This document shows positions 10,228-58,373 of a stretch of DNA of 64,000 nt, one piece after another (the stretch's first letter is position 1; every line of letters starts with the position of its first letter). This stretch comes from an uncultured bacterium. Its GTDB lineage: Bacteria; Joyebacterota; Joyebacteria; Joyebacterales; Joyebacteraceae. The position numbers were made by a program, and so were the translations under genes. Below the pieces are notes generated by a model. The model was not told the DNA's origin and did no database searches. It saw only the letters and a list, made by a program, of their open reading frames with translations. The stretch spans positions 3,381 through 67,380 of the forward strand of contig CAZLTC010000005.1 of assembly GCA_964562405.1 (NCBI GenBank), given 5' to 3'.

Positions 10228-10420
10228 CCCGGTGATGATGTACCGCCGGGCAGTCCGCTCTTGACACCCCACGTTCCCTCCCACAGAATGCGAGAAATCT
10301 GGGTAATTGTGTCCATGCCACGACGCGGACGGTCCCGGCCGCGCGCGCGAACTGCGCGGCGCGGCGAGCCTCGGCTCCGCCGACAGGGATCGACGATACG
10401 GCCAACCGGAGGTGCTTCGA

Positions 10421-13204: not shown

Positions 13205-13214
13205 GGGGTCGGCG

Positions 13215-14048: not shown

Positions 14049-14105
14049 GCACTATTGTGCGGCGGCTGATCCATCTCTTGCTCCTCACCGGAGGATGAAG
14101 TCGCG

Positions 14106-17137: not shown

Positions 17138-17205
17138 TCGGCCGTACCGCATCTGCACCAGGAGGGCACACGAGTTCGAGACTCCGAGTCGCGTTCGTCG
17201 GCGAT

Positions 17206-19616: not shown

Positions 19617-19697
19617 AGGGATGTGTGCGTTCTGGCGCGGTCGGTGATCGATCGGCCTGACGCGGCCTGCCCGAGACAGCACTGAGGTGGTGGCCGG

Positions 19698-22024: not shown

Positions 22025-22067
22025 CAGGCGGAAGCGCCGCCTCCGGCGTCCGCGTGGAGGTAGTGGC

Positions 22068-24507: not shown

Positions 24508-24527
24508 CACGCGGGATGGAGTGCCGC

Positions 24528-26183: not shown

Positions 26184-26387
26184 AGCCGCACACACGCGAC
26201 GACACCCGCGGAGCGCGAGCGGGTCCTGCGCGAACAGGGAGATGCGCGGGCACGGCCCGGAGGCGAGACGGGATTCCGGTTGCGCCGACGTCCCAATCTC
26301 TGCGAACATCCACTGATGATCTCTCATTCGGCGCCGCCCACACCGCGGTTCGCCGCTTGGTGGAGACGCGAACGTGGAGGTTGCTCC

Positions 26388-27488: not shown

Positions 27489-27492
27489 CGAC

Positions 27493-28617: not shown

Positions 28618-28628
28618 GGGGCTTAAGG

Positions 28629-29546: not shown

Positions 29547-29675
29547 GGCATATCTCCCCCATTGTGAATGTCATTCGTTCCGACTCGACCGCCTGTGGGC
29601 TTTCGCGAGGGCGGGCTTCGTGCTAGATTTCTCGGAACGGTCTTGTGCTGTGGTCCGGTGCCGGAGGTTGGAGGC

Positions 29676-36104: not shown

Positions 36105-39100
36105 ATGCGAAGATACCTGCCTGCAGTGACGCTGCTCACGATCCTGCTGCTCGCGAGCGGGGCGTTTCCGAAGACCTACAACACGCCGACGATAGACGGC
36201 CGCGTGCAGCAGAGCGCGAGCGATTGGGACGCGGACGAGCTGGGGGTCGATGATCCGACGGACGACGGGCGGTGGTATCCGAGCGACCCGGACCTCGACG
36301 ACCTGTACGTGACGTGGGACGCCGACAACCTGTACGTGGGCGTCACGACCCAGCGGGGGCCCGGGCAGTACGGCAACGGGTACGTGATCTTCATGGACAT
36401 CGACGGCCAGAACGGCGTTACCGGGGCCACGAGCTTTGCCAGCGCCGACTTCTATCCGCGTAACATATCGTTCAGCACGATGGGGGCGGACGTGGTCGGG
36501 GGTGCGTGGGCAGGTCAGGGGCAGTTCCCGATGAGCATGGACTTCAAGCGCTGCACCGACCCGACCAGCACCACGCTCATGACCGGGGTGACGTATTCCG
36601 CCAATCCCGGCGTCCTGAATTTCGAGTTCGGCATGCCCTGGGACACGATCTTCGGGCTGGGCCAGGGAGTCGTGCCCGCCGGAACGAAGATGCGCTTCAT
36701 AGTCGTGGTTGTGGGTGGAGACGGCTCGGGCGCATACGACGCGATGCCGACGTCGAGCACGGGCGCCGAGTCCAACCCCAGCACGCCGTGGGATGCCAAC
36801 ACCGATCTCGACAACTACTATGAGGTGCTCGTAGACGGCAACGGGGACGGCGTCCCGGACCAGGGATTCCCGTCCGGAGGCTCGATATCAGGTACCGTGA
36901 CGCTCGACGACGAGACCGACCTCGAGACCGTGGTCACCGTCTCGGCCTACCTCGAGGGCGAGCTGACGGGCTCTGACACCACGCCCGCGGGCGGCGGAGC
37001 GTATTCGATAGGACGGCTCCCGGACGGCGACTACGAGGTCACCGCCACGGCGGTCTCCTATCTCGACTCGACGCGTTACGCCACCGTCGTGAGCGAGTCC
37101 GACGAGACCGGTATCGACTTCCTCCTCCAGCGCGTGAACGGCGCCATCGAAGGGCAGGTGGCGCTCTCGGGCGGCCCCGCCACGGACGTGACGGTGACCG
37201 CGTATGACGTAGTCACCGGCGCGACGGCGGGCAGCGGTCCGGCGACGGTAACGGGAGGAACCGGCGCCTTCAGGATCGGGACCGTCCTTGACGGCACGTA
37301 CCGTGTCGAGGCTACGGCCAAGGGCTACGTTGAGCAGGCCGCCCAGGCGGTCGTCGCGCTGGAAGGAACGGCCGATGTAGGTCTCCTCACGCTCCCGGCC
37401 GTGGTGGCCACGAAGTACACGTTCGTCGATTCATCGGGGGCCGAGATCTACAGCGCCGGCACCACCGTCAGCATTCCGGACAGCTCGATCTACTACTTTG
37501 CACACGCGTGGCTCGAGCCGCGAGACGACGACGACCGCGTGGCATACTGGGACACGGCGGTGCAGGAGAGCGTCCTTCTGTCGGCGACCAAGCTTGATCC
37601 GTCCTATCCGCCGAGCGGGACGATCGTCTTCGCCGGTGCGGACAGCATGGAGATGCCGGACTCGACCATCACCGCGGCCATGTTCGACGACGGCAGGGCC
37701 CCGCTGCTGGTGGCCGGGGACGAGATCGAGGTGTTGCGCGTGCTCGCCGCCGGCAACGGTCTGAGCGGCGTGCTCGAGGTCGGCATCGACGCGCCGGCCG
37801 CCACGCGCCTCGCGCTCACGTCGGACATCAGCACCATCGACGTTGGCACCGGGATCGCGCGGATCACCGGTCAACTCATCGATGCCGCTGGCAACGACAC
37901 GAAGATATCTGGCGTCCAGGCAAGCATGACAGCCGGTGGAGCGGGTGGCCTGTTCAGCATCAGCTCGCCGGAGACCGACGCCAACGGCAGGTTCGAACTG
38001 GACTTCTACGGGACGGTCGCGGGCACGACCTACGTGTCGGCGGTGATCGATCCGTCGTCCGAGTACGCGAACCTCGACGTGGACGAGATCGCCATCGTGC
38101 TCGAGCCCGGCGACGCGTCGCTCGTCACGCTCACGGCGACGCCTGCCGCACTCAGAGCCGGGGAGACCGGCGAGATCACGGCCGCCGTCGTCGACGCCTG
38201 GGGCAACTCCGTGGGAATGTCCGGGCTGTCGATTGCGCTCACGTCATCGCCGGTCGGCCTTCTCACGTCGCTTGATACACCTCTCGTAACGGAGGCCGAC
38301 GGTATGGCCAGCGGCTCCGTCACGGCCGGTACCGCCTACGGCATCGTAGAGGTGTCCGGAGCCGCGGCGGGCGTCTCGGTTGAGACCATCTACATTCCCA
38401 TAGACGCTACGATCGTCGCCGTTGACGAGACCGCGCCGGAGTCCGACAACGCGCACAACAGCAACGCCGGGGTCGACCTTACGATCATGCGGGCCACTTC
38501 CGACGCGGAGACGCTCGAGGTCACGCTGGACTTCAGCTCCGACTGGGACGGGGTTCATCTCATGCTCGCGCTCGAGTCCCACGACGACGCGGCGGGTGGC
38601 GCGTCCGACCCGTTCGGCTTCCCGGTCAACTTCGGACACACGCTCCTTCCGGACTACGTCTTCACCTACAAGTATGCCGCGAACGACTACGCCGACCTGA
38701 GACGCTTCTTCGGCGGCCAGTGGGAGCACTACGACTTCGTCAACAAGGAATGGCGAGTCGGCTACATTCCCGAGGTCAACGCTCTGGCTTACGGCTACAT
38801 CGTCCGCGAGCAGGACAAGGTCATATTCCGGATACCTTTCTCCGTGCTCGAAACCGATTTCGGAGACACCGTTCGCGTCGAGGCCTACCTTACGCAGGAG
38901 GCCGACGGCGAGAAGAGGACCGCTCTCGACTCGGTGCCGCAGGACGCCACTCACGACATGGTCCCGGACACGGGAGAGTGGTGGGAGACCGCGACGACGC
39001 CGGTGACGCTCACGAACTACGCCGTTCACGAGATTCTCGTGCCGGGAGATCCTCCGGTGCTCTCCGACGGCACGGCCAGTCCATCGACGGCGCAGCCTGG

Positions 39101-41441
39101 CGATCTCGTGACCTACAGCGTAGGCGTGAGCGATGGCGGCGCCGGCATAGGCGACGTCTTCATCGACCTGTCGGGCGTAGGCGGTCCGTCTTTCCTCCGA
39201 ATGATGGATGACGGGCGCTCTCCCGACGGAGCTGCCGCTGACGGAGTCTATTCTGTGAGTGACACGTTGCGTGCCGGGGCGGCGAACGGTGAGCACACGG
39301 TGTTCGTTACGGCCAGGGATGCTTCGAACGTTTCCGAGGCGAAGCTCGGCATAACCGTCAACGTGGACAACCCCGCGGTCGCGCTCCGCGAGTTCGACGA
39401 TCCGGTCGGGGACGACCACGGACCGGACCAGACGTCTGCGAACGGCACCCCCATCCAGGGTCTGTACTACTACTACCCGACCAACTTCGTGTTCCTACCG
39501 GGATCGTTCGATCTCACGGACGTGGAGATCTTCGCGGACGGCGACTGGCTAGTCTTCCGCGTTCACCTCGACGATCTGGCCAACCACCAGGACGCGGGCT
39601 CGGCGGATTGGGGTGCGCCTCAGCCGAGTGAGCAGACGTGCACCAATCCCTATCGGACGGACCTCAACCTTCAGAAGATAGACATCTACATCGACGCCAG
39701 GGAAGGCGAAGGGGCGACGAGTGGGTTCCCCAACAGGTACGTCGACATCGCCACGGTCGACGCGTGGGACTACGCCATAGCCGTGGAGGGTTGGGGAAAG
39801 TGGTTCGTGAAGTCGAACGGGGAGAACTCGATAGCCAGCTGGTCGCTCTACAAGAACGACAGCGACATAAGTATGTGCGACGACTATGAGAACAATTACG
39901 TCGACGTCCGCGTCGACAGATCGCTCTTCGGACAGGACCTCGACGAGGACAACCTGAGCCTCCTCGAGTGGGACATCATCGTCACGATGGCCTCGCACGA
40001 CGGTGACTCGAGCGACCAGAACCTCGGCGGGACACGCTGGGTGAACGCCAACACGAGCGAGTGGCAGATAGGCGGCGGTCGCGACGGAGAAGCGAGCCGC
40101 GAGCGCGATGCCAACATCATGGACGTCGCGATGTCGCCCGGCGCGAGTCACGAGCCAGGCCGGACTCAGCAGGAGATGCTCGACTACACCACTCCCGAGG
40201 CGGAGCAGCGCTTCGCGGATGACAAGGTCGCCTGCGTGTTGGAGGCCAGTTTCGCGCTCGACACGTCTCCGCCGGTCATAACGCCGCTCAAGTCAGACCC
40301 CGACGTGCGCCACATCCCGTGGGTCGCGCTGGATGAGGCGCCTGCCGTCTTCTGGACGACGATAACCGATGTGTCGGACGTCGACGAGGCAATGTTCTAT
40401 TGGTATCCGGTTGGACTTCCAGCGTTGGTCGACTCTGTGAAGATGGTGAATCTGTATAGCGACATCTGGGCCGGTGACGTCGCCAGGGCGGACATCGTTG
40501 CCCATACTGACGTCGTCGAACAGGTAAAGACGGGCGCCAGCCGCGTCATACTCGGCTCGATCCGGGCGCGTGACGCCTCGTCGAACCACAACCAGATCAA
40601 GACCGTGTTCAAAGAGATCGCTATCCCCGAACCGTGGGCCTCCTCGCAGCGCATCGCCGACGTCGACACCTCATTCGTGGCGGGCGAGGACTACGCGGCG
40701 ATCTTCCAGGACGGCACGCTCCTCGTTCTGGAGCCCGGTCAGGTGGTGCCGGAGGGCGGGCTCGACATCTTGCTCACGCCGGTCGCTCAGAGCCTCGTCG
40801 ACCTCGACAACATTCGCAAGGACATGGCGTTCACCGGCGTTGCGAGGGACGTCCGCCTGGAGACGGGCGACAGGAGCACGGTAGCTCTCAGCGTTCCCGC
40901 GTGGCTCATCATGCACTACCCACAGTACGATGTGGGGGGCCTGAACGAGAACGCATTCGGCGTCTTCGAGTGGAACGAAGAGACGGAGCGCTGGATAGCC
41001 CTCGGAGGAGCGGCGAACAAGAAGGGCAACTCGGTCACATGTGTGGGCCTCGAGCGGCTCGGTCTCTTCGGTCTGTTCGAGTGGGACGCTCTTGACACGG
41101 GCGGCAGCCGCGGACTCTCGGGAGTGCTCGCCGAGCCGAATCCGTTCTCGCCCAACGGCGACGGGCTCTACGACGACATGGTGGTCACGTTCTACATCGG
41201 GAGAGAGGCCGACTACGTCAACATCGAGTTCTACGATCTGGCCGGAGTGCTCGCCAGACGTCTCGTCTTCCAGGATCCGGCCAACTACACGGGGCGCACC
41301 CCGATGCAGGTGGTGTGGGACGGCACGGACATGAACGGCAACGTGGTTCCCTACGGGCTCTACGTGTTGCGCGTAGAGGCCAAGTTCAAGACCGAGCCCA
41401 TCTACGAGCGCGTGAACATACCCGTAGCAGTCATCAAGTAG
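36105..41441 (+). CDS. Giant (1778 aa) secreted multidomain protein. It has an N-terminal CBM9/DOMON-like carbohydrate-binding domain, carboxypeptidase-regulatory-like and Big/Ig-like beta-sandwich repeats, a glucodextranase-C-like domain and a C-terminal T9SS-type/FlgD-Ig-like sorting domain
   Basis: Signal peptide MRRYLPAVTLLTILLLASGAFP. TIDGRVQQSASDWDADELGVDDPTDDGRWY...LYVTWDADNLYVGV (CBM9-like). Repeated GSISGTVTLDD...YEVTATA (CarbopepD_reg-like). LYYYYPTNFVFLPGSFDLTDVEIFADGDWLVFRVHLDDL...IDIYID (shared with the 50256..51032 protein). C-terminus NPFSPNGDGLYDDMVVTFYIGREADYVNIEFYDLAGVLARRLVF...VVWDGTDMNGNVVPYGLYVLRVEA. Confidence 0.8.
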   Translation: MRRYLPAVTLLTILLLASGAFPKTYNTPTIDGRVQQSASDWDADELGVDDPTDDGRWYPSDPDLDDLYVTWDADNLYVGVTTQRGPGQYGNGYVIFMDIDGQNGVTGATSFASADFYPRNISFSTMGADVVGGAWAGQGQFPMSMDFKRCTDPTSTTLMTGVTYSANPGVLNFEFGMPWDTIFGLGQGVVPAGTKMRFIVVVVGGDGSGAYDAMPTSSTGAESNPSTPWDANTDLDNYYEVLVDGNGDGVPDQGFPSGGSISGTVTLDDETDLETVVTVSAYLEGELTGSDTTPAGGGAYSIGRLPDGDYEVTATAVSYLDSTRYATVVSESDETGIDFLLQRVNGAIEGQVALSGGPATDVTVTAYDVVTGATAGSGPATVTGGTGAFRIGTVLDGTYRVEATAKGYVEQAAQAVVALEGTADVGLLTLPAVVATKYTFVDSSGAEIYSAGTTVSIPDSSIYYFAHAWLEPRDDDDRVAYWDTAVQESVLLSATKLDPSYPPSGTIVFAGADSMEMPDSTITAAMFDDGRAPLLVAGDEIEVLRVLAAGNGLSGVLEVGIDAPAATRLALTSDISTIDVGTGIARITGQLIDAAGNDTKISGVQASMTAGGAGGLFSISSPETDANGRFELDFYGTVAGTTYVSAVIDPSSEYANLDVDEIAIVLEPGDASLVTLTATPAALRAGETGEITAAVVDAWGNSVGMSGLSIALTSSPVGLLTSLDTPLVTEADGMASGSVTAGTAYGIVEVSGAAAGVSVETIYIPIDATIVAVDETAPESDNAHNSNAGVDLTIMRATSDAETLEVTLDFSSDWDGVHLMLALESHDDAAGGASDPFGFPVNFGHTLLPDYVFTYKYAANDYADLRRFFGGQWEHYDFVNKEWRVGYIPEVNALAYGYIVREQDKVIFRIPFSVLETDFGDTVRVEAYLTQEADGEKRTALDSVPQDATHDMVPDTGEWWETATTPVTLTNYAVHEILVPGDPPVLSDGTASPSTAQPGDLVTYSVGVSDGGAGIGDVFIDLSGVGGPSFLRMMDDGRSPDGAAADGVYSVSDTLRAGAANGEHTVFVTARDASNVSEAKLGITVNVDNPAVALREFDDPVGDDHGPDQTSANGTPIQGLYYYYPTNFVFLPGSFDLTDVEIFADGDWLVFRVHLDDLANHQDAGSADWGAPQPSEQTCTNPYRTDLNLQKIDIYIDAREGEGATSGFPNRYVDIATVDAWDYAIAVEGWGKWFVKSNGENSIASWSLYKNDSDISMCDDYENNYVDVRVDRSLFGQDLDEDNLSLLEWDIIVTMASHDGDSSDQNLGGTRWVNANTSEWQIGGGRDGEASRERDANIMDVAMSPGASHEPGRTQQEMLDYTTPEAEQRFADDKVACVLEASFALDTSPPVITPLKSDPDVRHIPWVALDEAPAVFWTTITDVSDVDEAMFYWYPVGLPALVDSVKMVNLYSDIWAGDVARADIVAHTDVVEQVKTGASRVILGSIRARDASSNHNQIKTVFKEIAIPEPWASSQRIADVDTSFVAGEDYAAIFQDGTLLVLEPGQVVPEGGLDILLTPVAQSLVDLDNIRKDMAFTGVARDVRLETGDRSTVALSVPAWLIMHYPQYDVGGLNENAFGVFEWNEETERWIALGGAANKKGNSVTCVGLERLGLFGLFEWDALDTGGSRGLSGVLAEPNPFSPNGDGLYDDMVVTFYIGREADYVNIEFYDLAGVLARRLVFQDPANYTGRTPMQVVWDGTDMNGNVVPYGLYVLRVEAKFKTEPIYERVNIPVAVIK

Positions 41442-43961: not shown

Positions 43962-44064
43962 CGCTGCGCGGGCGCGATTGCCCGCGGGCGGGGCGGCCAC
44001 CGGGACGAGCCCGGCTCGAGGCCAGGACGGGCGGCGAACGAGCCGCGCACACGGAGATGAGACC

Positions 44065-46206
44065 ATGAAGCCAGGACGCTGTTCGGTACTCGCAATGGCC
44101 ACCGCGGCGCTGCTCCTTCTGGGGGTGAGCGCCGCCTTGTCCGACGTGGCCGTCGTGGACGGCGGGATAGAATTCAGCTACGACGACCAGTACGCTGGGA
44201 GCGTCAGCCTCGCGGGCGACTTCAACAACTGGAGCATGGACGCCACGCCGCTCACGCTGGGAGAGGACGGTGTGTGGAGGGTGGTCTACGACCTGGGCCC
44301 GGGCTCGTACGAATACAAGTTCGTCGTCAACGGCTCAGAATGGATAGCCGACCCCGGCAACACGGTAGTCGTGGGCGACTACGGAAACTCCGGTCTGACG
44401 ATCGACGACAGCGGCGAGATAGTTGTCTCGGGGGGCGCCGCGGCGATATCGAACACGACGGTCAACTCGCGCGTGAAGATCAGCGGGTGGTACAGGGCGA
44501 CCTACAACACACAGTCGGATGTGCCGAGCGACCCGCGGTGGAGGCTGAACCGCCCGGAGCACGAGTTCTACATCGGGGTCGATCCGACCGTGAACAAGCA
44601 GGTCTCCGGGAGCGCAATGCTTCATCTCTCGACGGGCTCCGGCGACATCAAGGAGATCCACGCCGACATCTACAGCGGACACCTCACGTTCCAGGGCGGG
44701 CCGTTCAGCGTGATAGGCTGGTACAACGAGGAGGACGTGCAGTTCGACAATCCCCTCGAGTACGTCGGCCACACCGACCTCAGAGGCACGATCCCCGAGG
44801 AGCACATCCCGTTCGGCCGCGGCGCACAGGGCGTGAACCTCAAGACGGCCCCTTGGGGCTTCGACCTCACCGCCGTGTACGCGAACCAGTACGATCTGAA
44901 CATCTACAACAACCCCTCGATCTATGACAACACCGACACCGACCTCCTGGCGGCCCGGCTCAAGAGGCAGGCGGGCCCGGCCATGATCGGCGTGACGTAC
45001 GCGGCACACATCGACGGGTGGTGGATGAACTGGGCCGGCACTAACGAGAGCCCGCAGCTCAGCGAGTACATCGCGGAGAGCGGCAGCACCAGTGACTGGT
45101 TCGAGCTCTCCAACACCGAGCGTCTCATGGGTGTCGACGTCGACCTCCCGCTGGCTTCCGACATGTTCGACGTGAAGGCCGAGTATGCCCTCTATAGTTA
45201 CAACGGGCTGTGGGACATGGGCAACCGCGAGAAGGTCGAGGGAGAGGACTACTCGAACGGGGCCATAGACGTTCCGTTCGGCGACACCGACGGCTGGGTC
45301 GCACGCGGGGTTGTGGACGTCTCCACGCTCAAGCCGCTCGACCTCAAGCTCGAGGCAACACGATTCTCGCTCGACGGCATGGCCTACGATGAGGAGTTCG
45401 TCTCCTTCAGCGGTCCGATCTGGTGGAACGACTTCGGCCCGACGGTTCAGTCCGAGCCGTTCCCGGGAGCGGCGATCCGCCAGTACACGGAGGTCAAGTA
45501 CGCGGGCTCGCCCCTCATCGTCAACGTCTACGGGCCCCTCCCCGAGTACAAGAGCTGGGACTTTGAGCTCGAGGCCGGGTTCGGCCTTGGCATCTTCGAC
45601 ATGGGGCTCGAGTACGACAGGTACAGCTTCGAGGGCACGTTCATAGACTCCCTCGAGTGGCTGATGGGCCCGGGTGACTTCGACGGGTCGAGCCAGCGCA
45701 TCGCGGGAACGGCGAAGGCCGACATCCTTCCCGATAAGTTCGAGGTCGGGTTCGATTTCGAGTCGCTTACCCACGATTTGAACATGGGCAGCGAACTGGA
45801 GGAGGGTATCGGCTGGAGCAAGCCGATCGACACGTTCGAGGCCATTCTGTCAGGGCGCTACGAGTTCATCGAGAACTGGGGCGTGATGGCCAACCTCCGC
45901 CGTATCACGTACAACGATGTTCCGACTGTCTCCGCGTCCAGGGACTCCGTGACGTACGACGACAAGAGCTTCTTCGCCCCCTACGTGGCTCTCGTGTACA
46001 GCCCCAGGCCCAACATCGAGGTCCGGCTGGGATACGGCGTCGACCCGACTAACTACGTAGACACCCCCGTCGAAGGCCGGGGCAACGGGCGTGAGCGCTG
46101 GCGTTCGCAGTACCTCTGGGAGCACAGCGCGTACGACGTCATCGACGCGGAGAAGGCGCTCGAGAACGCCCGCACAATAGGCGTGATGGCCGTCATTTCG
46201 TTCTAG
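44065..46206 (+). CDS. Outer-membrane beta-barrel protein fused to an N-terminal CBM48 / AMPK-beta-type glycogen-binding domain (713 aa)
   Basis: ATG 44065 after GGAG; signal peptide MKPGRCSVLAMATAALLLLGVSAALS. GGIEFSYDDQYAGSVSLAGDFNNWSMDATPLTLGEDGVWRVVYDLGPGSYEYKFVVNGSEWIADPGN matches the CBM48 consensus (F.Y....A..V.LAG.FNNW....PL...DG.W.......G.YEYKF.V.G.W..DP.N). Then about 600 aa of beta-strand-rich sequence ending ...TIGVMAVISF. Confidence 0.65.
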   Translation: MKPGRCSVLAMATAALLLLGVSAALSDVAVVDGGIEFSYDDQYAGSVSLAGDFNNWSMDATPLTLGEDGVWRVVYDLGPGSYEYKFVVNGSEWIADPGNTVVVGDYGNSGLTIDDSGEIVVSGGAAAISNTTVNSRVKISGWYRATYNTQSDVPSDPRWRLNRPEHEFYIGVDPTVNKQVSGSAMLHLSTGSGDIKEIHADIYSGHLTFQGGPFSVIGWYNEEDVQFDNPLEYVGHTDLRGTIPEEHIPFGRGAQGVNLKTAPWGFDLTAVYANQYDLNIYNNPSIYDNTDTDLLAARLKRQAGPAMIGVTYAAHIDGWWMNWAGTNESPQLSEYIAESGSTSDWFELSNTERLMGVDVDLPLASDMFDVKAEYALYSYNGLWDMGNREKVEGEDYSNGAIDVPFGDTDGWVARGVVDVSTLKPLDLKLEATRFSLDGMAYDEEFVSFSGPIWWNDFGPTVQSEPFPGAAIRQYTEVKYAGSPLIVNVYGPLPEYKSWDFELEAGFGLGIFDMGLEYDRYSFEGTFIDSLEWLMGPGDFDGSSQRIAGTAKADILPDKFEVGFDFESLTHDLNMGSELEEGIGWSKPIDTFEAILSGRYEFIENWGVMANLRRITYNDVPTVSASRDSVTYDDKSFFAPYVALVYSPRPNIEVRLGYGVDPTNYVDTPVEGRGNGRERWRSQYLWEHSAYDVIDAEKALENARTIGVMAVISF

Positions 46207-46223
46207 GGAGGCTTGAGACCAAC

Positions 46224-47003
46224 TTGAGACCAAACAGGACTCTCACGATCGGTAGAGTGGCCGCGCTGGTCGCGCTCGCGGCGGTCGCCGCCGGCCTCGT
46301 CTCTTGCGCGGCCGTGCTCGGTGCGATCGAGGACCGTCTGCCTCCGCCCGAGGAGGTGAAGGGTGGGTTCATCTTCCGTTACTACGCTCCCTCGGCGCGC
46401 CAGGTCACCCTCGCCGGCAGCTTCAACAACTGGGGTGGAACGAAGGGCGGCGGGCGATACGACCCAGGGATCGACCCGATGTCGGACCCCGACGGCGACG
46501 GTGTCTGGTCGATCGTGGTCCCGCTTGCCCCCGGCAGATACCAGTACAAGTTCGTGATCGACGGCGGCACACGCTGGGAGGAGGATCCCAACAACCTCGA
46601 CACGGGTACGGAGGACGGGATCGAGAACTCCCTCGTGATCGTCCCGCCTACGGTGAAGTACGCCTACGAGGCCGTCACGGGAACCGTCGTCAGCGGTGAG
46701 ACGCGCCCGGCGGCGGCCGAGGCGGCATCGAGCGTGACGGCGGCCTCGGTCGACGTCGACATCACGGCGGATCTCCCCGACGCGAAGGAGGTCTACGTCG
46801 CCGGAGACTTCAACGACTGGGCGCCCACGCAGTACAAGATGGAGAAGAACGAGGACGGCGTCTTTCACGTCACGCTGACGCTCGCTCCGGGCACATACGA
46901 GTACAAGCTCATCGTCGACGGCACATGGGTCGAAGACCCGGATAACCCGAACACGGTTCCGGACCCGTATGGAGGAGTGAACTCCGTCCTGACGGTGAAG
47001 TAG
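46224..47003 (+). CDS. Surface lipoprotein with two tandem CBM48 glycogen/starch-binding domains (SusE/SusF-like role)
   Basis: TTG start; lipobox ...AAGLVSCAA. Domain 1 GGFIFRYYAPSARQVTLAGSFNNWGGT...DGDGVWSIVVPLAPGRYQYKFVIDGGTRWEEDPNN. Domain 2 VDVDITADLPDAKEVYVAGDFNDWAPTQYKMEKNEDGVFHVTLTLAPGTYEYKLIVDGTWVEDPDNP. Confidence 0.7.
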   Translation: MRPNRTLTIGRVAALVALAAVAAGLVSCAAVLGAIEDRLPPPEEVKGGFIFRYYAPSARQVTLAGSFNNWGGTKGGGRYDPGIDPMSDPDGDGVWSIVVPLAPGRYQYKFVIDGGTRWEEDPNNLDTGTEDGIENSLVIVPPTVKYAYEAVTGTVVSGETRPAAAEAASSVTAASVDVDITADLPDAKEVYVAGDFNDWAPTQYKMEKNEDGVFHVTLTLAPGTYEYKLIVDGTWVEDPDNPNTVPDPYGGVNSVLTVK

Positions 47004-47081
47004 GCTCCGCGGCGGAGCAGGCGCCGTGCCCGACCGGCGGCCCCCAGCGGCGCGCTCGGTCATAGGAGGCCGCGACCGCCC

Positions 47082-48068
47082 ATGCCAGGTCGCAGATCAA
47101 AGGTTCTAGCATCCGCCAAGGTGAGCAACGCCTCCGGCCTCGCAACCGGCCGGGGGCGTGCGCACTTGAGGGACAACCTCGTCTCATACTCATTCCTGGC
47201 GCCGTTCCTCATCATATTCGCCGTCTTCCTGGCGTACCCTGTCTTCTACTCGCTCTACCTCGCTCTCCACAGGGTGCCGTCCGACTCGTTCGACATCTTC
47301 GGAGGGCTGGTCTTCGTCGGGTTCGACAACTTCGCGCGGCTGTTCGCCGACACGCGGTTCTGGTGGTCGGTCCTCATGACCCTCTATTACGCTGCGCTCA
47401 TCATACCCTCAGGCATCGCGGCGTCGCTCGTGCTGGCGCTTCTCTTGAACAACAGACTCAAGGCGGTCGCCGTCTACAGAAGCGCGTTCTTCATGCCCTA
47501 CGTTCTCGACATGCTCGTCGTGGGCATTGTCTGGACGCTCATCTACAGCCCGCACGTGGGCATTCTCGTGAGGATCCTCGAGAGCGTAGGCATCTCGACG
47601 TTCACGGAGAAGGGCTTCCTCGGGATGACCGCATCGGCTATGCCTTCCGTCGTTCTGGCCAACGTGCTCAAGGGCGCCGGCTTCGGCATGATCCTCTACC
47701 TGTCGGCCATACAGAACATCCCGAGGTCGCTATACGAAGCGGCTCAGATAGACGGTGCGACAGCCTGGCAGCAGTTCAGGAGCATCACGCTGCCGCTGGT
47801 CAAGCCCATCACCTTCTTCATGGTCATAATAGGCACCATCAGCGCGCTGAACGCCTTCGCGGAGGTTTACGCGATGACCAGCGGCGGGCCGAACGTTGAC
47901 GTGGGAGGCAAGGCGCTCGGGGCCACGTGGGTCACCGGCTACTACGTCTTCGACACGTTCTACAACCAGTTCAGGCTGGGCTATGCCGCGGCGATGTCGT
48001 ACGTTCTTCTTGCGCTGACACTCGTGATCACGCTCGTGAACAGGCGGTTCTTGAGCACCGAGGCATGA
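47082..48068 (+). CDS. Sugar ABC transporter permease (MalF/UgpA-like)
   Basis: 6 TM; EAA-type loop ...YLSAIQNIPRSLYEAAQIDGATAWQQFRSITLPLVKP is typical of carbohydrate uptake (CUT1) family permeases. Confidence 0.85.
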   Translation: MPGRRSKVLASAKVSNASGLATGRGRAHLRDNLVSYSFLAPFLIIFAVFLAYPVFYSLYLALHRVPSDSFDIFGGLVFVGFDNFARLFADTRFWWSVLMTLYYAALIIPSGIAASLVLALLLNNRLKAVAVYRSAFFMPYVLDMLVVGIVWTLIYSPHVGILVRILESVGISTFTEKGFLGMTASAMPSVVLANVLKGAGFGMILYLSAIQNIPRSLYEAAQIDGATAWQQFRSITLPLVKPITFFMVIIGTISALNAFAEVYAMTSGGPNVDVGGKALGATWVTGYYVFDTFYNQFRLGYAAAMSYVLLALTLVITLVNRRFLSTEA

Positions 48069-48077
48069 CGGCGCCGA

Positions 48078-48923
48078 ATGCGCCAGGAGACCGTGTTGAA
48101 CAGACGTGAAGTCAGCATCATCAGGAGGGTGATCCTCTATGTCGGCCTCACGGTTGCCGCCGCCGTCGTGCTGTTCCCGTTCTTCTGGATGGTCGTGACG
48201 GCCTTCAAGGAGCCGGGCCACGCCTTCACGACCGAGATCCTCCCTGCGCATCCCACGCTGGAGAACTTCCGGCGCGTCCTGTCGGAGTACGGCTTCGCCA
48301 AGTACTTCCTGAACAGCGTCATAGTGGCCACCACGGCCGCGGTCTTCGCGACCCTGTTCGCCACGCTCTCGGGTTACGTCTTCGCCAAGAAGCATTTCTG
48401 GGGAAAGGACCGGGTCTTCGGCTTCCTCCTGGCCTCGCTCATGATCCCGGGCATGATGTACGTGGTTCCTCAGTTCGCCATCATCAACAGACTCGGCTGG
48501 ATGAATACCTACCAGGCGATGATCGTGCCGCACCTGGCCAACGTATTCGGGCTGTTCCTCATGCGGCAGTACATGATGACCATTCCGTCCGAGCTTCTGG
48601 AGGCGGCCAAGATCGACGGGGCCGGAGAGTGGCAGGTCTTCAGGACGATAATGGTGCCTCTCTCGGTGCCGATCATCGCCACTCTGTTCCTGCTGACGTT
48701 CCAGTTCCACTGGAACAACTTCCTGTGGCAACTCATTGTGACGAACGTCGAGCGGCTCTACACCGTCCCGGTGGGCCTGGCGATGTTCAAGAGCGCCCAC
48801 GAGGAACTCTACACGCTCAAGATGGCGGGTTCCTGCATCTCAGTAATACCCATAGCCATCCTCTTCTTCTTTGCGCAGCGCTACTTCATAGAGGGCATGA
48901 CGATGGGTGCCGTCAAAGGTTGA
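48078..48923 (+). CDS. Sugar ABC transporter permease (MalG/UgpE-like)
   Basis: ...LMRQYMMTIPSELLEAAKIDGAGEWQVFRTIMVPLSVP is the EAA motif region of MalG-like permeases. 9 nt after the first permease. Confidence 0.85.
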   Translation: MRQETVLNRREVSIIRRVILYVGLTVAAAVVLFPFFWMVVTAFKEPGHAFTTEILPAHPTLENFRRVLSEYGFAKYFLNSVIVATTAAVFATLFATLSGYVFAKKHFWGKDRVFGFLLASLMIPGMMYVVPQFAIINRLGWMNTYQAMIVPHLANVFGLFLMRQYMMTIPSELLEAAKIDGAGEWQVFRTIMVPLSVPIIATLFLLTFQFHWNNFLWQLIVTNVERLYTVPVGLAMFKSAHEELYTLKMAGSCISVIPIAILFFFAQRYFIEGMTMGAVKG

Positions 48924-48975: not shown

Positions 48976-50208
48976 ATGAGAAGGACCGTGATCTGGTTGG
49001 CCGCGGTGGCCGTAGCAGCGGGCCTCGTGGGCGGCTGCGGTGGAGGCAGCGAGCAGGCCACCCTTACCATCTGGCAGACCTACAATGACGAGGAGCATCC
49101 TGTCTTCAAGGAGATCGTCGCACAGTTCGAGGCCGCGCATCCGGGTGTGACGATAGACGTCATTCGTCTGCCGTTCGCGGGTGCCGAACCCAAGATCATG
49201 ACCGCGCTTACGACGAGGACCGAGCCCGACATCGCCAGGGTCGACGTGTCGTTCCTTGCGAAGCTCGCCCACAAGAACGCTCTCCTGGCGCTCGACGAGC
49301 TTGTTCCACAGCCGTTCCTCGGCGACATCCTCCCCGTGGCGCTGGCGAGCTGCCGCTATCGCGGCCAGCTCTGGGGTCTGCCTGACCAGACCAACGGGTT
49401 GTGCCTCTTCTACAATAAGGAGATGTTCCGCGCGGCGGGGCTCGACCCTGAGACGCCGCCCGGGACCTGGGATGAGCTGATCGCCGACGGTAAGAAGCTG
49501 ACGAAGCGCGACAAAGGCGTGTTCGGGCTGGGGCTTTCCAACTCGCTCTGGTGGTCGCTCCCGTTCTTCTACACATATGGAGCGGACCTGCTCTCCGAGG
49601 ACGGAAAGCACTGCCTGCTGAACAGCCCCGAGGGCATCGCCGCGTTCCAACTCAAGGTCGATATGTGCCAGAAGTACGGGATCGAGGGTGGCGCGTGGCG
49701 GGCCGGAGGCATCGTGCACGACCTGGGCTTCCAGAACGGTCGCTACGCGATGATCCTGAACGGGCCCTGGGCGGTGGAGAGCCTCAAGCAGACCGGCATC
49801 GACTTCGGCGTTGCCCCGATCCCGGCCGGCCCGGCCGGTTCCCACACGAACGTCGGCGGCAACGACCTGGTCGTGTTCAGGAGCACCAAACATCCAGACC
49901 TGGCCGCGCAGTTCCTGATGTACGTGGCAAGCGAGGACGTGCAGCGGATGTGGGCCGAGAGGCTGGGACAGATCCCCGTCAACATGAAGGCCTCGGACGT
50001 CATCACGTCAGAGGAGAGGCCTCACCTGGCCGTCTTCGTCGACGTGATGAAGACCGCGATCCCACGTCCGCAGACTCCTTACTATCCCGAGATGGAGAAT
50101 CTCATGAACCCCGAGATGCAGGCGGCCCTCGACAACACCAAGAGCGTCAAAGACGCTCTCGACTCGGCCGCCTCCGAGATAGACAAGCTACTGGCGGAGG
50201 ACAACTGA
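48976..50208 (+). CDS. Extracellular solute-binding lipoprotein (SBP family 1, maltodextrin/oligosaccharide-type) of the ABC transporter
   Basis: Lipobox AAGLVGGCGGG. ...TIWQTYNDEE...PDIARVDVSF...GLPDQTNGLCLFYNKEMF...WDEL is an SBP_bac_1 pattern. No ATPase gene in the cluster. Confidence 0.8.
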   Translation: MRRTVIWLAAVAVAAGLVGGCGGGSEQATLTIWQTYNDEEHPVFKEIVAQFEAAHPGVTIDVIRLPFAGAEPKIMTALTTRTEPDIARVDVSFLAKLAHKNALLALDELVPQPFLGDILPVALASCRYRGQLWGLPDQTNGLCLFYNKEMFRAAGLDPETPPGTWDELIADGKKLTKRDKGVFGLGLSNSLWWSLPFFYTYGADLLSEDGKHCLLNSPEGIAAFQLKVDMCQKYGIEGGAWRAGGIVHDLGFQNGRYAMILNGPWAVESLKQTGIDFGVAPIPAGPAGSHTNVGGNDLVVFRSTKHPDLAAQFLMYVASEDVQRMWAERLGQIPVNMKASDVITSEERPHLAVFVDVMKTAIPRPQTPYYPEMENLMNPEMQAALDNTKSVKDALDSAASEIDKLLAEDN

Positions 50209-51166: not shown

Positions 51167-53608
51167 ATGTCACGCGGGATGTTCCTTCTTGCCGCGATCC
51201 TGATGGCCGCGCCCATGGCGGCCCACGCGGTCGACGGCGCCGCTCCCACGGCGGTCGACGGGGGAGTCGAGTTCTCCTTCTACGCACCCGACGCCCGTAC
51301 GGTCAACCTGGCAGGCGAGTTCAACGGCTGGGATCCAGCCGCCACACCCATGACCGACAAGAACGGAGACGGAGTGTGGACGGTCGTGATCCCTCTCCAG
51401 ACGGGCAGGTCGTACGAATACAAGTTCGTGCTGAACGGCGGCGAGTCCTGGAAGGAGGACCCGAACAACCCGGACACCGTCGATGACAACCACGGCGGCG
51501 TGAACACCGTGGTGTCCGTCAATGACGAGGGCAAGGTGATCCTGGGCTATCTCGATGGCGGGGCCAAGGTGTTCGAACCCATCGTGGGGGACCTCCCGTC
51601 CGATGGAACGCCGATCGACGTGGCCATCATCTGGCATCAGCACCAGCCCAAGTATCTGCGCGACCTCAAGACCGGGGAGTACGACGAGCCATGGGTCAGG
51701 ATGCACTCGATCAAGGACTACTACGACATGGTCGCGATCCTCGACGACTACCCGCAGATCCACTTCACGGTCAACCTGACACCCGTGCTCCTCATGCAGA
51801 TGCAGGACATCATCGACGGATACAAGAGTGGTGGGGGCACCGATCGCTACATGCGCGCTACGCTGCAGAGCGCCGCTACGCTCACGACGGAGGACAAGCT
51901 CTTCCTGCTCACGCACTTCTTCAGCGCGCAATGGGACAACATGATCGAGGTGTGGCCGCGCTACTCCGAACTGAAGGCGAAGAAGGGTGGCGACAGCAGA
52001 GAACAGCTGCTGGCCAGCGCGGCTACGTTCAGTGAGCAGGACTGGCGCGACCTGCAGGCGTGGTTCAACCTGGCGTGGTTCGATCCGGACTTCCAGGAGG
52101 GCGACGTCACGCTGCCCGACGGCAGGGTCGTGACGGTCAAGAACTTCATCCAGAAGGGGCGTGGTTTCACCGAGGAGGACAAGCGCAAGATCATCGATAT
52201 CCAGATGGCGATAATGGAGAACGTCGTGGAGAAGCACCGCGAGCTGCAGAACCGCGGGCAGCTCGAGGTCATCACGACGCCCTTCTACCATCCGATACTT
52301 CCTCTTATCTACGACACCGATCTGGCGCGCATAGCCTCTCCGGGTCTTTCGCTTCCGGCTCACAGGTTTCACCGTCCCGAGGACGCCGCCTACCACGCGC
52401 GCGCCGCGGTCGACATGTACGAGCGACTCTTCGGCAGGAAGCCGTCCGGCATGTGGCCGGCCGAGGGCGCGGTGGCACAGGAGATCGTGCCGGTCGTGGC
52501 GGACGCGGGCTTCAGGTGGATGGCATCGGACGACCAGATCCTTGAGCATTCGCTCGAAGGCTCCGTATCCCCCGACAAGCGCTATCAGATGTACTGGGCC
52601 AGGGAGGGCGAGAAGTCCGTGGCGATGATCTTCAGGGACCACAGGCTGTCCGACGACATAGGCTTCAACTTCGGCAAGATGGACGGCGTGCAGGCCGCGA
52701 ACTCGATGATGCGTAGCCTTAGCTCGATACAGCGGCAGTTTCAGAGCGGTGACGGCAGCAACGTCGTCCCCATCATCCTCGATGGAGAGAACGCCTGGGA
52801 GTGGTACAAGCACGACGGCAAGGAGTTCTTTCACTCGTGGTACGACCAGATGAGCAAGGCGTCGTGGATCCACACGGTGACCGTCAACGAGCATCTGGAC
52901 GCTCACGAACCCACGGGGACGCTCTCGCGGCTCTATGCCGGTTCGTGGATAGGGCACAGCTTCGACACCTGGATAGGGGAGCCCGAGGAGAACCAGGCCT
53001 GGGATTACCTCGCACGCGCGCGTGCCGACATGGACAGCTTCGCGCAGGCCGGCGGATACGGCGCGGAGGATCTCAAGCGGGCGATGGACGAGATCTATGC
53101 GGCCGAGGGGAGCGACTGGTTCTGGTGGTACGGCGACGACCAGACCTCGCCACTGGAGGGCTCGTTCGACGAGATCTTCCGAGGGACGCTGTCAAACGCT
53201 TACACGATCCTCGGGGAAGAGCCGCCTTCGTTCCTGTCGGTGAGCATTCTGCGCGGAAGCGCCGCCTCCTCCGGGGGAGGCGTGATGGCGCGGGCGGCGG
53301 ACGCATCTGAAGCGACACTCCTGGCCGGTCCCGTGAAGCTCCCCGATGGTTATCTCTTCAGCATCAAGCGGCCGGACGCGTCGAGCGTCAACGTCGCGGG
53401 CAGCTTCAACGGATGGAGCACCGACGCTGCACCGATGAGCGACGATGACGGCGATGGCGTGTGGACGGCGGTGCTGGCCATCGAGCCCGGGACCTACGAG
53501 TACAAGTTCGCAATTGACGGAGGCACCGTCTGGGTGGCCGACGAGGGCAACCCGGACAGCGTTCCCGATCCGTACGGCGGCGCGAACTCCGTTCTTGTGG
53601 CAAAGTGA
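51167..53608 (+). CDS. Secreted glycoside hydrolase family 57 enzyme (alpha-amylase/amylopullulanase/branching-enzyme class) flanked by N- and C-terminal CBM48 domains
   Basis: Signal peptide MSRGMFLLAAILMAAPMAAHA. CBM48 FSFYAPDARTVNLAGEFNGWDPAATPMTDKNGDGVWTVVIPLQTGRSYEYKFVLNGGESWKEDPNNP. GH57 signature IIWHQHQPKYL...EPWVRMHSIKDYYDMV...FTVNLTPVLL...TTPFYHPILPL. C-terminal CBM48 FSIKRPDASSVNVAGSFNGWSTDAAPMSDDDGDGVWTAVLAIEPGTYEYKFAIDGGTVWVADEGNP. Confidence 0.85.
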   Translation: MSRGMFLLAAILMAAPMAAHAVDGAAPTAVDGGVEFSFYAPDARTVNLAGEFNGWDPAATPMTDKNGDGVWTVVIPLQTGRSYEYKFVLNGGESWKEDPNNPDTVDDNHGGVNTVVSVNDEGKVILGYLDGGAKVFEPIVGDLPSDGTPIDVAIIWHQHQPKYLRDLKTGEYDEPWVRMHSIKDYYDMVAILDDYPQIHFTVNLTPVLLMQMQDIIDGYKSGGGTDRYMRATLQSAATLTTEDKLFLLTHFFSAQWDNMIEVWPRYSELKAKKGGDSREQLLASAATFSEQDWRDLQAWFNLAWFDPDFQEGDVTLPDGRVVTVKNFIQKGRGFTEEDKRKIIDIQMAIMENVVEKHRELQNRGQLEVITTPFYHPILPLIYDTDLARIASPGLSLPAHRFHRPEDAAYHARAAVDMYERLFGRKPSGMWPAEGAVAQEIVPVVADAGFRWMASDDQILEHSLEGSVSPDKRYQMYWAREGEKSVAMIFRDHRLSDDIGFNFGKMDGVQAANSMMRSLSSIQRQFQSGDGSNVVPIILDGENAWEWYKHDGKEFFHSWYDQMSKASWIHTVTVNEHLDAHEPTGTLSRLYAGSWIGHSFDTWIGEPEENQAWDYLARARADMDSFAQAGGYGAEDLKRAMDEIYAAEGSDWFWWYGDDQTSPLEGSFDEIFRGTLSNAYTILGEEPPSFLSVSILRGSAASSGGGVMARAADASEATLLAGPVKLPDGYLFSIKRPDASSVNVAGSFNGWSTDAAPMSDDDGDGVWTAVLAIEPGTYEYKFAIDGGTVWVADEGNPDSVPDPYGGANSVLVAK

Positions 53609-53730: not shown

Positions 53731-56121
53731 ATGAGCATGGACAAGAAGTTGCAGAATCCCTGTCGGATCGAGATAGGTGACCGGACCGGAGAGGAGCCCG
53801 GCCACGGTCTTCCCGCCGTCGGGAAGCGCCGCGGTTTCCAGATCGTCGTCGGCCGCCACGGGTCGCGCGAGTACATCCTGACGAACAAGGAGCGGGCCTA
53901 CTTCGCCGGCGAGACCGGTACGACGAACACCCGCAGCTACGAAGGTCTGATCGTCGACCTGCACAAGTTTCTCGAAGGATGGGATCTGATGCTCGGCGAC
54001 CGACTTCTGTCGTCGTGGGGCGTCAAGAGCGCGTGCGTGCTTCCCCAGAGCATGACCCGGGAGCACATAGTCGAACGGACCACCGAGACGGTCTTCCTCG
54101 CCGATCGCCTCAATCTGCTCATTCTGACCTACAGCACGAGTTATCGGGGCCGCGCTGCATTCGTGCCGCGCATCGACATTCGCAGCATCTGGGAGGAGCG
54201 CCGCCCCGAGTACGACGTCCACTGGGATGAGGACCGCGGGGTTCTCGCTCTGCGCCGGAGCGACCACGGCGAACGCGGGGAGGGTGCCGACTATCCGGTG
54301 TGGGTCGCGGTGGCGTGTGATCGTCCGGTCGTGTTCATACCTGAACCCGGCTACCGGCAGACGACGTACACAAAGGATGCCGCTCGACGGGCGATGGGCT
54401 CGGCCCAGCCGTATGCGCCCGGCCGGCTGGAGTTCAGATTCGAAGGGGACGACCAATTCGCCTCGGGCGCCACGTTCAGCGTCGCCGTGGGGGACGATCT
54501 CGAGGCGACCACGGCGCTGGCGCTCAAGGGAATAGCGGAGGAGTTCTCGCTATATGATCTGAAGATGCGTCGCGTTTCCGATGCGATGGAAAACATGAGC
54601 GTGGCCGCGTACGACCGTGACTACAAGTACTCCCTCATGTGGGCCGCCGCGTCCGTCGATGGCCTGATCATGAACCAGCTCGGGAGAGGTATCTTTGCCG
54701 GCCTGCACTGGTTCCCCAACTACTGGGGCCGGGACACGTTCATAAGTCTCCCCGGCGCGTGCCTGGTGAGGGGCGAGTTCGAGACGGCGAGAGAGATACT
54801 CGAGACGTTCGCGTCCATGCAGGAGCGGGACGATGAGAGTCCGTTCCTCGGACGCATACCGAACCTCGCCATGCCGGGGGAGAAGCACTACAACACCGCG
54901 GATGGGACATGGTGGTTCGTGAGGGAGGTCTACGAGTACCTCCGATACTCGGGCGATCTCGAGTTCGCCCGGAGCATTCTCGGCTGCGTCGAGAGAGCCA
55001 TAGAAGGGGCGGTCAGTAAGCGCGTGGGCGACGACATGCTCGTGAGACACGGACAGGCCGAGACGTGGATGGACGCCGGCGGCGAGGCGAGTCCGCACTC
55101 ACCCAGAGGCGACCGGGCGGTCGAGGTGGAGGCGCTGTGGTACACGGCGCTCCGCGCCGGTGCGGGCGTGGCGGCCGCGGCCGGCAGAAGAAAGTTGGCC
55201 GGGGAGTGGAACAAGATGGCCGACGCCGTCAGGGATTCGTTCCGGCGCCTGTTCTGGGATGAGCGACGGGGCCGGTTGTACGACCACATCGACCCGGACG
55301 GTGCTCCGGACGAGAGGCTGAGGCCTAACCAGCTCTTCGCGATCACCGTTCCGTGGGACGACCTGCTACCTGAGGCGCAGCGCGAGGAGGTCGTCCGGCT
55401 CGTCAGGGAGACGTGCGTGCTCCCGCACGGCGTGGCCTCCCTGGCTCCTAGCGACCCATACTTCCATCCGCGGCACCTCGATCTGGACAGGTACCACTTC
55501 GACGAGGCCTATCACAACGGAGACGTCTGGGTGTGGCTCACCGGTCCGGCCGTCTCGGCCTACCTGCGGCAGGGGCTCGTCGGCCCGGCGTGGGAGCAGA
55601 CGAAGGTGCTCACCGACCTCATGTACGAGGAGGGCGCGGCCGGGACGCTTCCGGAACTCCGCAACGGCGTTCCTCCGGAGGGCGGGGAGAACGTCGCAGG
55701 CGCGGTGTCTCAGGCGTGGAGCCTTGCCGAGTACCTGCGCAACTTCTACCAGGACTACCTCGGTATCGTGCCCGACGTGATGAGCGGCACGCTTCACTTC
55801 AGGCCCGTTCTGCCGAAGGCTCTGTCGTGGGTAACGGCCCGCGCCCGTGTCGGCGGCGGGTGCCTGTCGGTCTTCTGCCGAACGGAGGAAGACGGAAGCG
55901 CCGGGCGGTTTGTTGTTCTGTCGGATCACGGGGCGCCGGCCCTCAACGTGGTCTTCGAGACGCTCGTTCCGCTCACCGACGACGTTCGGACGGAGGCGGT
56001 GAGCGCGACGGCATCGCTCGAGCCCGGCAGCGGCCTCTCGTTCGAGGTCGCGCGAAGCGGGGACGAGTGGTTCGTCGTCGTGTCCCCCGCCAGTCCTGAG
56101 GCGGAGAGCGACGCGCCTTGA
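53731..56121 (+). CDS. Glycogen debranching enzyme (amylo-alpha-1,6-glucosidase, GDE_C/GH133-like, archaeal-bacterial type), cytoplasmic
   Basis: No signal peptide. ...GIFAGLHWFPNYWGRDTFISLPGACLVRGEFETAREIL... and ...AETWMDAGGE...RAVEVEALWY...PNQLFAI...NGDVWVWLTGP are characteristic of the (alpha/alpha)6 GDE_C domain. Confidence 0.8.
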   Translation: MSMDKKLQNPCRIEIGDRTGEEPGHGLPAVGKRRGFQIVVGRHGSREYILTNKERAYFAGETGTTNTRSYEGLIVDLHKFLEGWDLMLGDRLLSSWGVKSACVLPQSMTREHIVERTTETVFLADRLNLLILTYSTSYRGRAAFVPRIDIRSIWEERRPEYDVHWDEDRGVLALRRSDHGERGEGADYPVWVAVACDRPVVFIPEPGYRQTTYTKDAARRAMGSAQPYAPGRLEFRFEGDDQFASGATFSVAVGDDLEATTALALKGIAEEFSLYDLKMRRVSDAMENMSVAAYDRDYKYSLMWAAASVDGLIMNQLGRGIFAGLHWFPNYWGRDTFISLPGACLVRGEFETAREILETFASMQERDDESPFLGRIPNLAMPGEKHYNTADGTWWFVREVYEYLRYSGDLEFARSILGCVERAIEGAVSKRVGDDMLVRHGQAETWMDAGGEASPHSPRGDRAVEVEALWYTALRAGAGVAAAAGRRKLAGEWNKMADAVRDSFRRLFWDERRGRLYDHIDPDGAPDERLRPNQLFAITVPWDDLLPEAQREEVVRLVRETCVLPHGVASLAPSDPYFHPRHLDLDRYHFDEAYHNGDVWVWLTGPAVSAYLRQGLVGPAWEQTKVLTDLMYEEGAAGTLPELRNGVPPEGGENVAGAVSQAWSLAEYLRNFYQDYLGIVPDVMSGTLHFRPVLPKALSWVTARARVGGGCLSVFCRTEEDGSAGRFVVLSDHGAPALNVVFETLVPLTDDVRTEAVSATASLEPGSGLSFEVARSGDEWFVVVSPASPEAESDAP

Positions 56122-58283: not shown

Positions 58284-58373
58284 CGAGACAGAAGGAAGCA
58301 GAGGGGAACCGGCATGATCCGATGCCGGTCCGACATCCCCTGAAGAAAGCGAGAGCCCCGGGAGGTGTCGTGG

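Follow-up and report, generated by a model that had tools for sequence, protein, structure and literature searches.

A 64,000-nucleotide stretch of contig CAZLTC010000005.1 (assembly GCA_964562405.1, positions 3,381 to 67,380 of the forward strand), from an uncultured bacterium of the Joyebacterota, carries a gene at 44065..46206 that encodes a genuine outer-membrane beta-barrel fused to a carbohydrate-binding module (CBM) of family CBM48. We call this stretch the window and the protein the CBM48-barrel. The gene is part of a five-gene core, in the order surface protein, PorV-like outer-membrane protein, paralogous barrel, CBM48-barrel, and CBM48 lipoprotein, and this order is conserved across about eight phyla. 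From fold and gene context, we put at roughly even chances the reading that the CBM48-barrel would be one subunit of a multi-component outer-membrane apparatus for the uptake of alpha-glucan (starch, glycogen, or maltodextrin), with its CBM48 at the periplasmic mouth.

The coding sequence begins with an ATG at 44065, inside a + strand open reading frame (ORF) spanning 43978..46206, with GGAG 8 nucleotides upstream, and its stop codon ends at 46206. About 100 clusters of full-length homologues at 27–84% identity were retrieved from 5.8 billion proteins, so the gene is not a chance ORF. Where these homologues have been named, they are entered as “glycogen-binding domain-containing protein” or “hypothetical” from Candidatus Eisenbacteria or Krumholzibacteriota. 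The window has a guanine-plus-cytosine content of ~65%, and long antisense ORFs such as 44335..45774 (-) are therefore expected by chance. We took both this ORF and a second, 46203..47063 (-), to be high-GC artefacts; the second, of 286 amino acids, is longer than the + strand gene 46224..47003 that it overlaps and has no family match, while the + strand gene has strong ones, and it is probably spurious.

The first-pass annotation of this DNA had matched the N-terminal ~100 residues to the CBM48/AMPK-beta consensus almost position by position, and profile searches bear this out. Membership was judged with Pfam PF02922 and PF16561 at their curated gathering scores: in the region of residues 33–108, the segment scored 35.9 bits against AMPK1_CBM (cutoff 26.8) and 32.7 bits against CBM_48 (PF02922; gathering cutoff 22.4). 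Searched in isolation against PDB sequences, it retrieved the CBMs of AMPK beta1/beta2 and a GH13 pullulanase at E ~1e-7 (AMPK beta ~2e-7), and the family profile matched AMPK beta CBMs at ~1e-11. Its FNNW, YEYKF, and EW..DP motifs line up with AMPK beta; within them, W56 (FNNW), K85 (YEYKF), and W93 (EW) are matched to FNNW, YKF, and QW of AMPK beta1/beta2 and coincide with the sugar-contacting residues W100, K126, and W133 of AMPK beta1. All three are invariant across 58 aligned homologues, as are Y84, N99, and N108, and the segment has the beta-sandwich fold of the family. Judged on its residues, the module is a genuine CBM48 with conserved sugar-binding positions, and alpha-glucan binding is predicted.

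The remaining ~600 residues, also proposed at first pass to be an outer-membrane barrel with an aromatic C-terminus, proved to be just that. An AlphaFold2 model built on the 58-sequence alignment reached a mean predicted local distance difference test (pLDDT) score of 84.1 and a predicted template modeling score of 0.77, with pLDDT <50 only in the signal peptide and at residues 122–133. After the linker, the model has 22 long strands, many of which alternate polar and hydrophobic residues (for example, FEVGFDFESL, LDLKLEATRFSL, and IEVRLGY), and the chain closes with ...AVISF, its last residue being the aromatic Phe of a beta-signal. Foldseek searches with the model returned TonB-dependent transporters, AlgE, LptD, and MtrB at E ~1e-8, and every strong match was an outer-membrane barrel; the soluble beta-sandwich or propeller that had been considered as the alternative to a membrane barrel appeared neither in the model nor among these matches. 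The protein has the signal peptide, amphipathic strands, and C-terminal aromatic residue of an outer-membrane beta-barrel, and closure of the barrel is inferred from the fold matches. Pfam TonB_dep_Rec_b-barrel (PF00593) gave 20.0 bits (E 7e-4), under its cutoff of 27, and this similarity recurs in 9/58 homologues at E <0.01 (best 1.7e-5). The plug domain PF07715 was not detected in the target, in the 58 close homologues, or in 68 distant ones (126 family members), and PDB sequence searches with both family profiles, those of the target barrel and of its upstream paralogue, returned nothing for either barrel. The barrel is thus not maltoporin-like: with ~22 strands, it has the size of a TonB-dependent transporter without the plug.

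The topology of this barrel bears on where the CBM48 lies. When a closed antiparallel barrel has an even number of strands, strand 1 starts on the side where the last strand finishes. Bacterial outer-membrane proteins have this end of their C-terminal aromatic strand in the periplasm, and TonB-dependent transporters, SusC, OmpM, BamA, and LptD carry their N-terminal domains at the periplasmic rim. In the model, turns of 2–5 residues alternate with connections of 2–57 residues, mostly longer, and this register places the start of strand 1 on the periplasmic side, together with the C-terminal Phe. Because the CBM48 is N-terminal to strand 1 of an even-stranded barrel whose Phe strand ends in the periplasm, it would emerge at the periplasmic rim. 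The module most likely faces the periplasm, unless the linker threads the pore as in autotransporter passengers, and the extracellular placement proposed earlier runs counter to this standard topology. The flexible linker is predicted as coil, with pLDDT <50 at residues 122–133. Its S129-N130-T131 motif, just before strand 1, has an invariant N130 and S129/T131 that are ≥90% conserved; the linker is modeled at very low confidence, yet this nearly invariant Ser-Asn-Thr is kept even in relatives at 25% identity.

Conservation is uneven around the barrel. The surface-side connections 151–164, 191–197, and 221–253 of the N-terminal half and the loop between strands 21 and 22 (residues 658–703, containing two helices) are as conserved as the CBM48, at 0.68–0.77, while loops of the C-terminal half are variable, at 0.13–0.23. 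Conservation of this degree in predicted surface-side loops, encoded at 44515..44823 (residues 151–253) and 46036..46173 (residues 658–703), is unusual for exposed loops and suggests that they are lumen-lining elements or partner contacts.

A profile of the barrel alone (alignment A3) found only 152 matches at E ≤1e-3 among 1.84 billion representative proteins. A CBM48 is present in 67 of the 68 full-length distant representatives, which are 17–38% identical to the alignment reference P0220, and in all 58 close homologues. Given its presence in 67/68 distant representatives, the fusion is not an accident of one genome but an ancient architecture that defines a small family. Some distant relatives carry two to three N-terminal starch-binding modules (CBM48, X25, CBM53, and CBM20), so that the barrel starts at residues 218–290, 348, or 409, and one homologue matches Pfam SusF_SusE. 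In a distribution scan that took one genome per species and kept 80 loci, full-length relatives were labeled Candidatus Eisenbacteria, Krumholzibacteriota, uncultured Fibrobacteraceae, Gemmatimonas/Gemmatimonadota, Latescibacteria, WOR-3, Cloacimonadota, and Elusimicrobia, and all full-length matches came from metagenome-assembled genomes. One locus labeled “Patescibacteria group” (L008, DATKWS010000072.1) carries the whole outer-membrane module; to our knowledge this group has no outer membrane, and the bin label is probably wrong. Matches of the barrel-only profile to giant Ig-like/SprB-repeat adhesins of 2500–6200 amino acids (P0257, P0258, P0328, P0343, P0356, and P0365) consist of many weak repeated stretches on profile positions 235–376 (approximately residues 362–503, spanning the long hairpin 368–419), and we set them aside as probably repeat-summed noise.

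The gene immediately upstream encodes a second barrel without a CBM and without any Pfam or NCBIfam family match. The kinship that the first-pass annotation had proposed between the two is marginal by pairwise BLASTP (E 0.032) and clear by hhalign of the two family alignments (96.5% probability, E 9.9e-10, 252 columns), which pairs residues 133–435 of the target with 29–313 of its neighbor, so that the start of the latter aligns with strand 1 of the target. On these profiles, we regard the two barrels as real but old paralogues.

Synteny was then assessed by calling ORFs in 82 fetched loci and searching them with profiles and with the window proteins; 35 of the loci carry a CBM48-barrel, and upstream counts were restricted to those with enough flanking sequence. 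The paralogous barrel lies immediately upstream in 31/33 loci and a PorV-like gene is upstream in 28/31, while a small CBM48 ORF with one or two modules follows immediately downstream in 30/35. Most of these 30 downstream ORFs have a lipobox and Cys followed by ...[IV][KR]xRLPPP... ahead of the CBM, and the RLPPP motif that follows the lipidated Cys of the window's own lipoprotein is conserved across phyla. Homologues of the large surface protein precede the PorV-like gene in most loci. Its minimal forms, of 354–435 amino acids (L029, L032, L033, L034, and L066, from Cloacimonadota, Elusimicrobia, and one Eisenbacteria locus), retain nothing but the ~250-residue N-terminal domain, which has no Pfam match, and a ~100-residue C-terminal FlgD_ig-like domain; because only these ends are kept, the two terminal domains make up the conserved core, and the part between them is a spacer or binding region that can expand. 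Genes for ABC importers, GH57 enzymes, and other CBM48 enzymes are found near the CBM48-barrel in many loci. With a separate CBM48 lipoprotein, a second barrel, and a PorV-like protein as such regular companions, the earlier picture of a one-polypeptide analogue of a SusC/SusD or maltoporin/binding-protein pair does not hold.

In the window itself, the CBM48-barrel gene is the fourth of 11 + strand genes that run from 36105 to 56121 with gaps of 9–134 nucleotides (Table 1). The PorV-like assignment comes from NCBIfam PorV_fam (NF033709), at 87.3 bits against a cutoff of 90, and from weak Pfam matches to TraF_2, PorV, and PorP_SprF. No sorting domain was detected in the GH57 protein. The exported 258-residue protein encoded ahead of it is essentially a lone Glucodextran_C domain, a domain that is fused to GH57 in P0100, P0102, and locus L002, and it may be a detachable accessory module for GH57.

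Table 1. Genes of the alpha-glucan cluster and parts of the CBM48-barrel protein (window positions; aa, amino acids)
Feature	Position	Strand	Description and basis
Surface protein, 1778 aa	36105..41441	+	Signal peptide, N-terminal ~250-aa domain, CarboxypepD_reg, Ig-like, Glucodextran_C, C-terminal FlgD_ig/CHU_C-like sorting domain (Pfam, NCBIfam)
PorV/PorQ/PorP-like (FadL-type) outer-membrane protein, 290 aa	41457..42329	+	NCBIfam and weak Pfam
Paralogous outer-membrane barrel without CBM, 524 aa	42387..43961	+	Signal peptide; homology by hhalign
CBM48-barrel gene	44065..46206	+	713 aa: signal peptide, CBM48, linker, and ~22-strand barrel, no plug
Sec signal peptide, aa 1-26, MKPGRCSVLAMATAALLLLGVSAALS	44065..44142	+	From sequence; helix at low pLDDT in model
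CBM48 / AMPK-beta-type glycogen-binding module, aa 27-113	44143..44403	+	Profile and PDB sequence matches
Linker, aa 114-135, 22 residues	44404..44469	+	Low-confidence coil; conserved S129-N130-T131 just before strand 1
Beta-barrel, aa 136-713	44470..46203	+	22 amphipathic strands (136-712); chain ends in Phe
Lipoprotein, 259 aa, two CBM48 modules	46224..47003	+	Lipobox LVSC; Pfam AMPK1_CBM 96 bits, two stretches
ABC (ATP-binding cassette) sugar-importer permeases (two)	47082..48068, 48078..48923	+	Pfam BPD_transp_1
Sugar solute-binding lipoprotein of ABC importer	48976..50208	+	Pfam SBP_bac_1 2.6e-44; N-terminus ...LVGGCGG
Exported Glucodextran_C protein, 258 aa	50256..51032	+	Pfam 1.2e-35; signal peptide
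Exported GH57 alpha-glucan-active enzyme, two N-terminal CBM48	51167..53608	+	Pfam; PDB GH57 matches 5e-71; signal peptide
Amylo-alpha-1,6-glucosidase (GDE_C) debranching enzyme	53731..56121	+	Pfam 6e-72; no signal peptide, presumably cytoplasmic

If the CBM48-barrel is part of an uptake apparatus, the sorted surface protein would capture starch or glycogen outside the cell, and alpha-glucan chains would use the wide plug-free barrel or barrels to cross the outer membrane, with no energy from TonB. At the periplasmic mouth, the tethered CBM48, the CBM48 lipoprotein, and the GH57 enzyme with its CBM48 modules would jointly bind the chain as it emerges; this binding would bias diffusion inward as a ratchet, making entry effectively one-way and presenting the chain to GH57, whose products would then enter the cell through the ABC importer. 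The CBM48 proteins of the cluster have only Sec or lipoprotein signals, and the sole protein with a sorting domain has no CBM48, a division that is consistent with this scheme. We propose more tentatively, as a possibility that we hold to be less than probable, that the five-gene module is an unrecognized polysaccharide-uptake machine independent of SusCD and TonB, common to many phyla of the Fibrobacteres–Chlorobi–Bacteroidetes (FCB) group and related phyla, mostly uncultured, in which a periplasmic CBM ratchet would pull in long alpha-glucans. Several points weigh against uptake with a periplasmic CBM48. Transport is deduced from fold and gene context, and every homologue comes from an uncultured organism. 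Arrays of two to three starch-binding modules, as in some relatives, typify surface proteins that meet polymer more than periplasmic ones; unusually high conservation (0.73–0.77) in the surface-side loops of the barrel's N-terminal half hints at an interaction outside the model; and the scheme does not account for what the paralogous barrel and the PorV-like protein do.

The same arrays are among the grounds for the extracellular CBM48 of the first-pass annotation. For this, the linker would run back through the lumen, and the surface-exposed CBM48 would capture starch outside and feed it to its own barrel, as a tethered analogue of SusD on SusC. The 22-residue linker, with its conserved SNT, would measure ~70 Å when extended, enough to span the barrel; without a plug domain, the lumen may be roomy; and both the tandem modules of relatives (CBM48, CBM20, CBM53, and X25) and the one SusF_SusE match are typical of surface proteins. 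We nonetheless consider this arrangement rather unlikely, as a domain N-terminal to an even-stranded barrel lies by default in the periplasm, the prediction for the linker is coil and not a pore-filling helix, and no autotransporter signature is found: the translocator family PF03797 has no match in the target, whose 22 strands and linker coil differ from a 12-stranded autotransporter barrel. The cluster also already has a gene for a dedicated surface protein that bears a sorting domain.

That surface protein figures differently in a non-transport explanation, whereby the barrels and the PorV-like protein would anchor it as an S-layer-like adhesin and the CBM48 would tether the assembly to a glucan layer, as SLH does in OmpM. 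Its Glucodextran_C (SLH-like) domain and a weak S-layer family match fit such a role, and the pairing with a PorV-like protein recalls type IX cargo with a cognate PorP/SprF anchor. Such bacteria are not known, however, to have an alpha-glucan in the periplasm or envelope, and genes for an ABC sugar importer, a GH57 enzyme, and a debranching enzyme accompany the module in the window, with linkage in many other loci as well; the sugar-binding residues are strictly conserved, and there is a dedicated CBM48 lipoprotein. Anchoring is in our view distinctly unlikely.

The position of the CBM48 raises a further alternative, in which it replaces the plug of a TonB-dependent transporter as a sugar-sensing gate in the lumen that alpha-glucan would displace. 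It holds the same place in the sequence, N-terminal to a 22-strand barrel; a barrel of this width without a plug needs some restriction; and the weak PF00593 similarity recurs. We judge this improbable, because the two to three N-terminal CBMs of relatives whose barrels start at 218–409 cannot all fit in the lumen, a seated plug would not need a 22-residue low-confidence linker, no TonB box is conserved, and the 87-residue CBM48 is roughly half as large as a plug. Export of an alpha-glucan exopolysaccharide through the barrel, in the manner of AlgE, PgaA, or BcsC, is very improbable, since the cluster has no glucan synthase, glycosyltransferase, or tetratricopeptide repeat (TPR) scaffold, its other genes are for an importer and hydrolases, and a separate exopolysaccharide cluster at 10–31 kb has its own Wza-like exporter.

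Among known systems, TonB-dependent transporters for maltodextrin or starch, such as SusC of Bacteroides and MalA of Caulobacter, are the closest in structure to the CBM48-barrel, with 22 strands and the weak PF00593 match in common. They likewise have an N-terminal globular domain before strand 1 and genes that sit in an alpha-glucan catabolic cluster, and the pairs SusC/SusD, BtuB/BtuG, and XusA/XusB share the layout of a lipoprotein gene directly downstream of the barrel gene. The target differs from these transporters in having no PF07715 plug, no conserved TonB box, no PF00593 match above the gathering cutoff, and no evident energy coupling, and its CBM48 stands where their plug is. The stretch DVAVVDG (residues 27–33) superficially resembles a TonB box but was rejected as one, since it makes up the first strand of the CBM48 and the consensus across the family reads V-x-K-V-D-G-G. 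Unlike SusD, the lipoprotein partner is a small CBM48 protein and not a TPR protein, and no SusD-family match was found in any neighboring gene of the cluster. Starch-binding modules working with an outer-membrane transporter recall SusD/SusE/SusF, of which the CBM48 lipoprotein is a plausible functional counterpart, but here one binding module is covalently fused to the barrel and is probably periplasmic. The passive sugar-specific channels LamB, ScrY, and CymA are built of 18 strands (trimeric) or 14 and lack a fused binding module, whereas the target barrel is much larger and belongs to a multi-barrel module; it has no Pfam match to LamB (PF02264) and not the 18 strands of that family. OmpM (SLH) and OmpA-type proteins carry a cell-wall-binding SLH or OmpA_C domain where the target has an alpha-glucan CBM, and the context here is catabolic and not one of envelope maintenance. 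A gene for a FlgD_ig/CHU_C-like protein directly followed by one for a PorV-family barrel resembles type IX cargo and its PorV/PorQ/PorP/SprF partners; both matches fall just under curated cutoffs, and the CBM48-barrel and its paralogue have no counterpart among the known type IX components.

The literature searched, including a 2026 review of bacterial glycoside transporters, describes no fusion of a CBM to an outer-membrane barrel, in keeping with the first-pass annotation, which knew of no such characterized fusion; a paper on Fibrobacter that names CBM48 deals with GH9 cellulases. A glycan channel of the outer membrane that carries its own CBM, inside a conserved and undescribed multi-barrel module, would be new. 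Glycans cross the outer membrane in two known ways, through small passive porins such as LamB or through TonB-powered transporters of the SusC/D type, and a wide plug-less barrel with a covalent starch-binding module would, if the uptake reading is right, be a third design for glycan transfer. It would then help to explain how abundant uncultured lineages of soil, sediment, and sludge consume starch and glycogen, and it would give annotators a marker for alpha-glucan use in a barrel that currently has no Pfam family. It also poses a testable question, whether binding alone can drive polymer import with no energy source at the outer membrane.

Two further observations concern the wider window. 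The FlgD_ig/CHU_C-like domain at the C-terminus of the surface protein (36105..41441, +) also ends two other exported proteins, unrelated to it and to each other, a subtilase (8419..10227, +) and a lamin-tail-domain protein (58365..60068, +), which suggests that the source organism uses a type IX-like sorting signal. The separate cluster for polysaccharide synthesis and export occupies approximately 10307..31019 (+) and encodes a Wza-like exporter with many SLBB repeats, Wzz, a flippase, and a Wzy-like polymerase, together with GT4 glycosyltransferases, a UDP-GlcNAc 2-epimerase, a DegT aminotransferase, and a WecA-like GT4; within it, the gene for a heparinase II/III-like protein adjoins that for a glucuronyl C5-epimerase-like protein.

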